A stretch of DNA of 64,000 nucleotides, from NCBI GenBank assembly GCA_038211455.1, contig JBBQVP010000003.1, positions 157-64,156 on the forward strand, given 5' to 3'. Under the pieces are notes generated by a model. That model saw nothing but the letters and a program-made list of their open reading frames with translations, had not been told where the DNA came from and did not search any database. The first letter of the stretch is position 1. Each line of letters starts with the position of its first letter. The stretch comes from Burkholderiales bacterium. Its GTDB lineage: Bacteria > Pseudomonadota > Gammaproteobacteria > Burkholderiales > SG8-39. The position numbers were made by a program, and so were the translations under genes. Positions 59,705 through 61,021 of the stretch are shown piece by piece.

Positions 59705-61021
59705 TCAGAAGTTGACCCCGAGGAAAGCCCCGATCTTCTCGGCAGAAAAGTCGAGCATCGATTCGCTCAGGCCGGGATAGACGCCGATCCAGAACGTGTT
59801 GTTCATGACGATGTCGGTGTTTTTCTGGGTTCCGCTGACCCGGAAGTTCCGCCCGATCATGGAGGGTTGCCGAACAAGATTACCCGCAAAGAGCAGGCGG
59901 GTGCCGATCTTGCTCTGGTCGAGGTAGTTCAGCAGGTCGACGCGGTTCACCGGCGCGTTTTCCCGCAAGGTGATCGGAAAGCCGAACCAGGAGGGATCGG
60001 AATTAGGCGTGGCTTCCGGCAGCACCAGGAATTCCTCGCACGACCCGAGGCGTTCCTTGAGCCGCGTGAAGTTGTTCTTGCGTGCCTGGATGAAGCCCTC
60101 GAGTCTATCCATCTGGGCGAGGGCGCAGGCCGCCTGCATGTCTGTTATCTTGAGATTGTAGCCCAGGTGGCTATAGGTATATTTGTGGTCGTAACCCTGC
60201 GGCAGGTCGCCGAGCTTCCAGCAAAAGCGCTTCCCGCAGGTGTTCTCCTTGCCGGTCGGGCAGTAGCAGTCGCGCCCCCAGTCGCGGAAGGACTCGGCGA
60301 TCCGCCTGAGCTCGTCGTTGTTTGTGAAGACCGCGCCGCCTTCACCCATTGTGATGTGGTGGGCGGGATAGAAGCTCAGGGTGCCGATGTCCCCGAAGGT
60401 GCCGACGAGCTTGCCATCGTAGGTTGCGCCCAGTGCGTCGCAACTGTCTTCGATGAGCCAAAGATCGTGCTTCCTCGCAATTCGGGTCACTTCGGCGAGG
60501 TTATAGGGATTGCCGAGTGTGTGGGCCAGCATGATGGCCTTGGTCCTGGGGCCAACAGCGGCTTCCAGCTGGGAGACGTCGATGTTGTAGGTTGGAATAT
60601 GGACATCGACGAACACCGGCACCGCACCGAACTGTACGATCGGGTTCACCGTCGTCGGGAAACCTGCGGCAACGCCGATGACCTCGTCGCCGGGCTTGAT
60701 GGCGCGCTCGCCCAGGCTCGGACTGGTGAGCGCGGAGAACGCGATCAAATTGGCGGAAGAACCGGAGTTGACGCTCATGAGGTACTTCACCCCAAGGTAC
60801 CCGGCCAGCCGCTGTTCAAACGCATCGTTGAAGCGGCCGGTCGTCAGCCAACCGTCCAAGGAGGCTTCAACCATGTTCTTGAGCTCCGGGGCGCCAATGA
60901 CTTTGCCAGCCGGAGGAACGACCGTGGCGCCGGGGATGAAGGGCTTTGGCGCAAAGGCAAGCGCCGCGTATTCATCCACGAGGGAGGCGATTTGTTGGCG
61001 AATATGTGCTGCTTTTTCCAC
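59705..61021 (-). CDS. rfbH: CDP-6-deoxy-4-hexulose 3-dehydrase, E1 type (RfbH/DdhC/AscC family, PMP and [2Fe-2S] dependent)
   Basis: DegT-fold protein of 438 aa. The active-site Lys is replaced by His (SFYPAHHIT). Cys spacing is exactly C-X57-C-X1-C-X7-C (DSC...57 aa...[11 protein letters not shown]). Confidence 0.85.

Follow-up and report, generated by a model that had tools for sequence, protein, structure and literature searches.

A stretch of 64,000 nucleotides (the window) from a Burkholderiales bacterium (GenBank assembly GCA_038211455.1, contig JBBQVP010000003.1) contains a gene for an E1-type sugar 3-dehydrase and, converging on its operon, a long run of genes that includes one for a thiamine diphosphate (ThDP) dependent enzyme. 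The genome is a sediment metagenome-assembled genome (MAG) of 375 contigs, 87% complete and with 7% contamination, and since the window spans nearly all of its contig (C3, 64,230 bp) the island is cut at the contig end. A first-pass annotation of the window had suggested that these genes make a 3,6-dideoxy sugar with the aid of a non-canonical electron donor. The E1 gene was compared here with the 80 nearest E1 loci (72-79% identical, nearly all from betaproteobacteria), which are referred to by L numbers, other contigs of the assembly being given C numbers.

The E1 gene and its operon

The spacing C-X57-C-X1-C-X7-C is the unusual [2Fe-2S] motif of CDP-6-deoxy-4-hexulose 3-dehydrase (E1, AscC or DdhC), an enzyme of 3,6-dideoxyhexose biosynthesis that requires the E3 reductase (AscD/DdhD). 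Cys194, Cys252, Cys254 and Cys262 of the window protein reproduce this spacing exactly, and the sequence SFYPAHHIT is present. The gene lies on the minus strand, the plus-strand frame at 59705-61021 being no gene, and its call agrees with a public prediction of exactly that protein. The Pfam family DegT_DnrJ_EryC1 matched it at 327 bits and the NCBIfam RfbH equivalog NF011936 at 748 bits, against a cut-off of 423. When the PDB was searched with phmmer, the protein aligned full length and ungapped with E1 of Yersinia pseudotuberculosis (3BCX, E=1.6e-206, 689 bits). All four cysteines pair with the four corresponding cysteines of 3BCX, and the first histidine of the HH pair, His221, pairs with the residue that is lysine in the H220K variant (3BB8; H220 of Yersinia E1). 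The exact cysteine spacing, the alignment of the cysteines with those of Yersinia E1 and the histidine in place of the Schiff-base lysine, all raised in the first-pass annotation, were thus borne out. Both the spacing and YPAHH are kept in 79 of 81 E1 orthologues, and the motif is therefore conserved rather than a matter of chance. The reading frame is complete, with every catalytic and cluster residue kept and gene-like codon usage (G+C at third codon positions, GC3, 0.79). By its sequence and motifs the gene is a genuine, intact E1-type sugar 3-dehydrase which, like the Yersinia enzyme (AscC/DdhC/RfbH), has the DegT fold, the histidine and the four-cysteine [2Fe-2S] motif. This is a solid annotation and not a discovery; E1 and YerE-type branched-sugar pathways are already known. 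The features of the locus are collected in Table 1.

Table 1. Features of the E1 operon, the region upstream of it and the convergent plus-strand gene run (positions within the window; SDR, short-chain dehydrogenase/reductase; GT, glycosyltransferase)
Feature	Position	Strand	Remarks
Extended SDR, first gene of plus-strand run	42389-43540	+	Pfam
HddC-like NTP transferase	43637-44371	+	
CBS-GHMP sugar kinase	44384-45919	+	
NeuB-family synthase (SAF domain) fused to xylose-isomerase-like TIM barrel	45898-47817	+	NeuB 254 bits, AP_endonuc_2 72 bits
Second FkbM-domain methyltransferase	47842-49053	+	Pfam Methyltransf_21
YerE/JanthE-like ThDP-dependent carboligase	49084-50886	+	600 aa
Xylose-isomerase-like barrel (second in run)	50889-51752	+	Pfam
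Gfo/Idh/MocA oxidoreductase	51801-52847	+	Pfam
Classical SDR	52850-53692	+	Pfam; 74% identical to L061 gene
Class I methyltransferase	53670-54593	+	Pfam
GtrB-like GT2	54686-55621	+	Pfam
NUDIX hydrolase	55614-56129	+	Pfam
GtrA flippase	56131-56616	+	Pfam
FkbM-family methyltransferase, last gene of E1 operon	56623-57549	-	TIGR01444 114 bits
Extended SDR 2	57546-58556	-	Pfam Epimerase; start codon approximate
Extended SDR 1, NDP-sugar epimerase/reductase type	58598-59662	-	Pfam Epimerase 133 bits
E1/RfbH/DdhC-type CDP-4-keto-6-deoxyglucose 3-dehydrase	59705-61021	-	438 aa, GTG start
E1 Cys codons	60440-60442, 60266-60268, 60260-60262, 60236-60238	-	
E1 His221 codon	60359-60361	-	replaces Schiff-base Lys
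IS3-family OrfA helix-turn-helix stub, KRYPDEFKIEAVKQV	61217-61306	+	seen in translation; no transposase body
Truncated 3' remnant of YfhO-like GT-C glycosyltransferase gene, directly upstream of E1	61422-61898	-	

Two SDRs and an FkbM methyltransferase come after E1, as the first-pass annotation had stated, in place of the prt/abe/asc genes of the Yersinia locus. SDR1 is 33-45% identical to SDRs of relatives' E1 loci, and the best homologues of SDR2 (42-44%) come from L044, L060 and L070, which are operons with both E1 and a ThDP enzyme, and also from L057 and L080. The FkbM protein is 40% identical to the one that closes the E1-ThDP operon of L044. Searches of the PDB with the two SDRs returned generic NDP-sugar SDRs only, and the possibility that either was a disguised RfbG, the CDP-glucose 4,6-dehydratase, was rejected on TIGR02622 scores of 44 and 36 bits against a cut-off of 278.

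Directly upstream of E1, where 77 of the 80 relatives carry rfbG, no rfbG was found. The place is taken by an insertion sequence (IS) stub of the IS3 family, a weak match (Pfam HTH_Tnp_1, E=0.002, 18.7 bits, under the cut-off), and by the remnant of a YfhO-like gene. Of the 835 positions of the Pfam YfhO profile, the remnant matches 753-832 alone. Elsewhere the genome has a full-length paralogue of ~780 aa (C47:8407-10761), with whose C-terminus the remnant shares 60% identity over 99 aa. Because stub and truncated gene lie directly upstream, E1 looks as if it sits behind a rearrangement scar and was moved away from rfbFG. A contig of an independent (Logan) assembly of the probable source sample spans 55000-62853 with zero differences, so that the 5' junction of E1 is no artefact of the MAG assembly.

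It could be envisaged that the same IS-mediated rearrangement split E1 from rfbFG and from its promoter, leaving a stranded relic with an intact frame that is silent or has no substrate or reductase. The stub and the truncated gene fit such a history, as do a scan that revealed no sigma-70-like promoter, the failure to find rfbF, a complete rfbG or E3 in the assembly, and the failure to find E1 in 17 other species of the genus. Nevertheless, a relic would hardly be expected to retain a full-length frame with all catalytic and cluster residues and a GC3 of 0.79, followed by three likewise intact genes. The operon also recurs in pieces elsewhere: in a second sample these are identical or nearly so, and in another study they are 90-99% identical. 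Moreover, Herbaspirillum sp. AP02 also keeps an E1 without adjacent rfbG (L061), its rfbG lying beside a second E1 on another contig (L027). We therefore regard a relic as improbable, and favour a functional E1 that was displaced from rfbFG.

The pieces from the other study are short contigs of soil metagenomes (runs X3 and X4), 90-99% identical to the stretch from the GT2 gene to a GT-A gene, including E1 and the region of the YfhO remnant (55000-63000); a related strain with the same arrangement is therefore probably present outside the source sediment. Two adjoining open reading frames (ORFs) of ~240-276 aa occupy 61759-63299 (+) between the YfhO remnant and a tetratricopeptide repeat (TPR) gene, one with a sub-threshold GT-A-like match (Glyco_tranf_2_5) and the other without a Pfam match.

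Substrate supply and electron donor

The first-pass annotation saw neither RfbF nor RfbG, and neither was found within the window. This absence is local for RfbG, the C-terminal half of which is encoded at the very edge of another contig (C102:3-539; model positions 180-352, 207 bits), while RfbF and the 5' half of rfbG were not found in the assembly. Complete RfbG occurs in six of the 17 other species of the genus, and none of those six has E1; indeed, E1 turned up neither in the 17 nor in 24 other genomes belonging to the family, and was found in two of 16 genomes searched from other families of the order. Since these sister species have RfbG without E1, the simplest reading is that a resident O-antigen-type cluster supplies CDP-4-keto-6-deoxyglucose and that the E1 island is an accessory addition.

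The contig in question carries a separate O-antigen-type cluster (C102, also L022, positions 3-8701), which starts inside rfbG and continues with a TylCIII-type C-methyltransferase, rmlC-like and rmlD-like genes, an NDP-sugar dehydrogenase, wzm and wzt. An SDR, a gmhA-like gene and a dTDP-glucose-dehydratase-like SDR are also present. The cluster points to a C-methylated CDP-6-deoxy sugar made without E1.

No gene of the Fer2 or ferredoxin-NADP reductase (FNR) type was found on C3, in agreement with the first-pass annotation, which had seen no E3 in the window. Since no E3-specific NCBIfam model was found, cluster-linked E3 proteins of relatives were used as queries, the references being the 15 genuine E3 genes from relatives' loci with the order ddhD-ddhA-ddhB-ddhC. 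Three proteins of the assembly (on C1, C5 and C297) have the E3 architecture. Two of them, C1:67591-68601 and C5:5064-6071, consist of an N-terminal plant-type [2Fe-2S] ferredoxin and an FNR-like module (~330 aa), and have housekeeping genes as neighbours. Both were rejected as E3 orthologues, with 31-41% (C1) and 30-36% (C5) identity to the 15 references. Each of five other genomes tested had an orthologue of the C1 protein (56-62%), and a true E3 is present as well in three of them; the C1 protein is therefore a separate housekeeping paralogue. A Fer2 match at the edge of C120 was likewise rejected as a truncated E3, as it is the ferredoxin of an isc operon, following hscA. No dedicated E3 orthologue was thus found in the assembly. 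Of the three genes for which a genome search had been suggested, ascD/ddhD (E3) and ddhA (RfbF) were not found, and ddhB (RfbG) was represented by its 3' half on C102.

The first-pass annotation implied that an E1 without E3 is an oddity, and this did not hold. Among the 70 relative loci with sufficient upstream sequence to be assessed, 15 have a linked E3 and 55 have none, so that an absent E3 is the usual state and no peculiarity of the window locus. A single well-supported clade of the E1 tree, to which the window E1 does not belong, contains 12 of the 15 E3-linked genes; over the whole tree the state changes four times. When four E3-less genomes were searched in full, no E3 orthologue appeared; the best match was 42-43% identical, and in the two that could be cross-checked it was the housekeeping paralogue itself. 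When all neighbouring ORFs were clustered, no gene specific to E3-less loci was found among the annotated clusters that could replace E3, several clusters being unannotated; the annotated clusters confined to such loci were GT2, GtrA and the DmpF/DmpG dehydrogenase-aldolase pair. That E1 is the rule without a linked E3 in these nearest loci raises the question of which reductase serves E1 outside Yersinia and Salmonella, and names a concrete candidate.

A precedent is offered by SpnQ of Saccharopolyspora spinosa, an E1-like Fe-S dehydrase whose partners are general ferredoxin or flavodoxin reductase pairs (PMC8987622). The window E1 resembles it, as described, in being an Fe-S/pyridoxamine 5'-phosphate (PMP) 3-dehydrase without a dedicated E3. 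The substrate of SpnQ, in contrast, is a dTDP-2,6-dideoxy sugar of an antibiotic pathway in an actinomycete, whereas the window E1 is a close orthologue of the CDP-specific Yersinia enzyme. By analogy, a non-canonical electron donor for E1 is plausible.

A conventional pathway may also have been hidden by the assembly, with E3, rfbF and the 5' part of rfbG lying in unassembled DNA upstream of C102 in the order ddhD-ddhA-ddhB. C102 does begin in the middle of rfbG, E3 lies directly upstream of rfbF-rfbG in all 15 relatives that bear it, and completeness is 87%. Against this, the rfbG of C102 is followed by a C-methyltransferase and RmlC/RmlD-like genes and not by E1, in a layout that matches the sister species which have RfbG and lack E1, and the window E1 stands apart from the clade that holds most E3-linked loci. 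We give a concealed E3 little chance, and continue to regard a general reductase as the donor that best suits the window E1.

The ThDP enzyme and its linkage to E1

The acetolactate-synthase-like ThDP enzyme reported at 49084 was recovered with the three domains TPP_enzyme_N, _M and _C, an architecture like that of acetohydroxyacid synthase (AHAS). Its best PDB match was JanthE of Janthinobacterium sp. HH01 (8RPH, 425 bits, near full length), followed at a distance by the best AHAS, a plant enzyme (288 bits), and by 5AHK (264 bits). JanthE is a characterised YerE-like carboligase that accepts ketones (PMC12188165, PMC12247030). An assignment to AHAS was rejected, as the protein fell under the cut-off of every AHAS model and the genome's own bona fide AHAS (on C262, 1063 bits) is separate in the tree, and one to IolD was rejected as IolD was absent from the top model matches. 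In the tree the enzyme belongs to a clade (support 99/97) with 28 E1-linked ThDP enzymes of relatives, apart from the genome's AHAS, its oxalyl-CoA decarboxylase and three other paralogues. Its sisters (99/96) come from L061 (Herbaspirillum sp. AP02) and L077 (Polynucleobacter), and the NeuB-barrel fusion is present at both loci. The comparison with YerE, IolD and AHAS for which the first-pass annotation had called was thereby settled in favour of the YerE-like group.

The Mg/ThDP motif (50434-50454) reads VDGEGGF...NNNG, with GEG in place of the canonical GDG-X(24-27)-NN. The GEG variant is shared with L035, and the sub-clade of JanthE has CDG. Variants of this motif are known in active family members (PMC12188165). 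By phylogeny and context, the enzyme is thus placed as YerE-like with a variant metal motif. A homologue 37% identical is encoded in another species of the same genus (G021:C12:1050311-1052065), in whose genome no E1 was found.

The plus-strand run (42389-56616) converges on the E1 operon, and whether the two belong together could be judged from relatives. Downstream of E1 in Herbaspirillum sp. AP02 (L061), and co-directional with it, come homologues of the window's kinase (62% identical), NeuB-barrel fusion (76%), ThDP enzyme (47%), barrel (38%), classical SDR (74%) and NTP transferase (42%), the kinase coming directly after E1 and the NTP transferase ~7 kb further. The operon of L044 reads rfbF-rfbG-E1-SDR2 (43%)-ThDP-DmpF-DmpG-SDR1 (35%)-FkbM (40%), and its genes rank at or near the top among the matches to those of the window's minus strand. 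Among 44 SDRs directly after E1 in relatives, 29 have the SDR at 42389 as their best match in the window (mostly 38-51%, minimum 32%). The window GT2 is 52-60% identical to GT2 genes in 16 relative loci, located up to ~8 kb from E1, mostly downstream and often with GtrA. Several independent linkages in relatives thus say that E1 is functionally tied to the plus-strand operon, as far as gene neighbourhood can tell.

More generally, the 80 loci have, just downstream of E1, a YerE-like enzyme in 28 and a split transketolase (Pfam-confirmed) in 32, together 59 loci. A ThDP enzyme thus follows in about three quarters of E1 loci, from which it follows that betaproteobacterial E1 mostly feeds carbon-carbon branching and not the classical dideoxyhexoses. 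The split transketolase (Transketolase_N, then Transket_pyr with Transketolase_C) lies directly after E1 in L023 (11324-13056) and 31 other loci, and is usually followed by an SDR, GtrA and GT2.

A different reading takes the two operons as independent pathways, the minus-strand one making a simple 3,6-dideoxyhexose, O-methylated and akin to abequose, paratose or ascarylose, and the plus-strand one an unrelated sugar. The operons are indeed separate and convergent; in L093 and L029 no more than an epimerase and a reductase come after E1, and a ThDP enzyme is absent; neither a ThDP nor a transketolase gene was found in 18 of the 75 loci with sufficient downstream sequence; and L143 has the NeuB cassette but no E1. 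For the window's own SDR2 and FkbM, however, the best homologues reside inside the E1-ThDP operon of L044, the E1 and NeuB/ThDP genes of L061 are adjacent on one strand and 47-76% identical to those of the window, and the other 28 members of the ThDP enzyme's clade are all linked to E1. Two unconnected pathways are thus rather unlikely, and a joint pathway of both operons is preferred.

A proposed pathway and its relation to known systems

On these grounds we propose, with a probability of about 0.55, that E1 and the island make a C4-branched, O-methylated 3,6-dideoxyhexose that is delivered by a GtrB/GtrA lipid-carrier route, with CDP-sugar supply by RfbF/RfbG from outside the island and reduction of E1 by a general reductase. 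The analysis shows what E1 is and that its motifs are intact, places the ThDP enzyme among the YerE-like ones and documents the linkage of the genes in relatives. From this we infer the supply, the electron donor, the donor acid, the acceptor and the order of the steps, as well as the chemistry of each step, which would be as follows. RfbF and RfbG of the O-antigen-type cluster would provide CDP-4-keto-6-deoxy-D-glucose, from which E1 (PMP/[2Fe-2S]) would strip the C3 hydroxyl to give CDP-4-keto-3,6-dideoxy-D-glucose. The two reducing electrons would reach the [2Fe-2S] cluster of E1 from a general reductase, either the ferredoxin-FNR fusion on C1 or Fdx/FNR-type pairs. The YerE/JanthE-like enzyme would then branch the 4-keto product at C4 with a decarboxylated 2-keto acid, which the neighbouring NeuB-isomerase fusion may well make. 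SDRs would reduce the branch carbonyl and set the stereochemistry by reduction or epimerisation, and the FkbM enzymes would methylate the sugar. Finally, the GtrB-like GT2 and GtrA would load it on undecaprenyl phosphate and flip it for periplasmic glycosylation, and a GT-C enzyme would transfer it to lipopolysaccharide (LPS) or pilin. The GT2, NUDIX and GtrA genes (54686-56616) are a lipid-carrier delivery module.

Several points weigh against this proposal. E1 is separated from rfbFG, with the IS stub and the truncated gene immediately upstream of it, and a scan of 56300-61950 gave no sigma-70-like promoter site and was uninformative. RfbF and half of rfbG are missing from the assembly, and its 87% completeness and 7% contamination leave room for an unassembled E3, or for C102 or C1 being foreign. 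The operons of E1 and of the ThDP enzyme are separate and convergent, with ~9 kb between the two genes, and the ThDP enzyme has GEG in its metal motif. In addition, the cassette of NTP transferase, kinase, NeuB fusion and SDR is found without E1 or ThDP enzyme in one distant genome (L143), and may therefore be an independent pathway.

YerE adds a two-carbon branch to the product of E1 and E3, which leads to yersiniose. The first-pass annotation had arrived at a 3,6-dideoxy sugar, possibly branched and methylated; comparative genomics backed the branched and methylated sugar, while the branch is probably not of the two-carbon yersiniose type. In JanthE-type loci the ThDP gene is accompanied by DmpF/DmpG, and the erwiniose cluster has the same arrangement of ThDP enzyme and aldolase, the aldolase making the 2-keto acid donor (PMC9306805). 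The position of DmpF/DmpG is taken by a NeuB-family gene in several sub-clades, that of the window included. The window NeuB domain aligns over its full length with NeuB of N. meningitidis, and a NeuB gene adjoining E1 or the ThDP gene was confirmed with Pfam in L026, L043, L058, L077, L081, L089 and L110, with NeuB-like matches by tblastn only in L061 and L063. The genome has a single CMP-transferase-type gene, on C177, which leaves the NeuB product without an obvious activating enzyme and fits its use as a keto-acid donor. From such gene content a NeuB-made keto acid is a possible branch donor.

A more specific version of this idea is offered tentatively, and we would not call it probable. 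The NeuB-isomerase fusion would condense phosphoenolpyruvate with an aldose to a 3-deoxy-2-ulosonic acid that is not CMP-activated; the YerE-like enzyme would decarboxylate this acid and add it to C4 of CDP-4-keto-3,6-dideoxyglucose, giving a very long-branched, methylated higher-carbon sugar, and E1 would be reduced by the betaproteobacterial housekeeping ferredoxin-FNR paralogue in place of a dedicated E3. A literature search for 'YerE-like' together with NeuB found no paper, the catalogue of Krug et al. 2024 (Angew. Chem. e202403535), which reportedly holds >200 YerE-like clusters, lying outside that search. Characterised clusters have an aldolase gene near their ThDP gene; that a NeuB-isomerase fusion adjoins the one of the window suggests branch donors of a new origin, and with them new substrates for the biocatalytic synthesis of tertiary alcohols. 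The proposal is testable in Herbaspirillum sp. AP02, which is cultured and has a run of adjacent homologous genes. A parallel to the fusion is seen in a Rhodoferax MAG (L089:2169-3677), where the NeuB beside E1 is fused to a cupin/lyxose-isomerase-like domain.

Set against the published acyl-branched 3,6-dideoxyhexose pathways, the window system is a variant that differs in gene content and layout. Like the clusters for yersiniose (DdhA-D, YerE, YerF), erwiniose, caryophyllose and gastriose, it is a surface-glycan locus that unites E1 with an AHAS-like ThDP carboligase and with SDR reductases (PMC9306805, PMC12247030), and like them it has beside the ThDP gene a gene for an enzyme that forms a keto acid, for which the NeuB fusion is the candidate here. 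Unlike them, it has no aldolase of the DmpG/ErwI type, the NeuB-isomerase fusion, CBS-GHMP kinase and NTP transferase being found instead, its E1 stands in a separate operon without rfbFG, and FkbM methyltransferases are added. Compared with the Yersinia E1 locus, the window is without adjacent ddhD, ddhA and ddhB, and the closest E3-like protein is the housekeeping paralogue. JanthE (8RPH/8RPI/8RPJ; PMC12188165) and the window's ThDP enzyme are both YerE-like, and in both the ThDP-binding motif departs from the canonical one; the window enzyme differs in having GEG for the CDG of JanthE, and in belonging to a sub-clade linked to NeuB fusions, whereas the clade of JanthE has DmpF/DmpG neighbours.

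Further genes of the window lie outside the two operons. The second ThDP gene encodes an oxalyl-CoA decarboxylase (17236-19095, +; 1017 bits, well over the cut-off) and has no relation to the sugar island. Next to a GtrA gene (35843-36382, -) lies a gene for a type IV pilin (36416-36850, -) whose C-terminal part is rich in Ser and Thr, and several TPR-GT41 (OGT-like) genes surround the pilin (32610-42149), of which the ORFs 40080-41150 (TPR) and 41175-42149 (GT41) look like a single split gene. The island may glycosylate this pilin.

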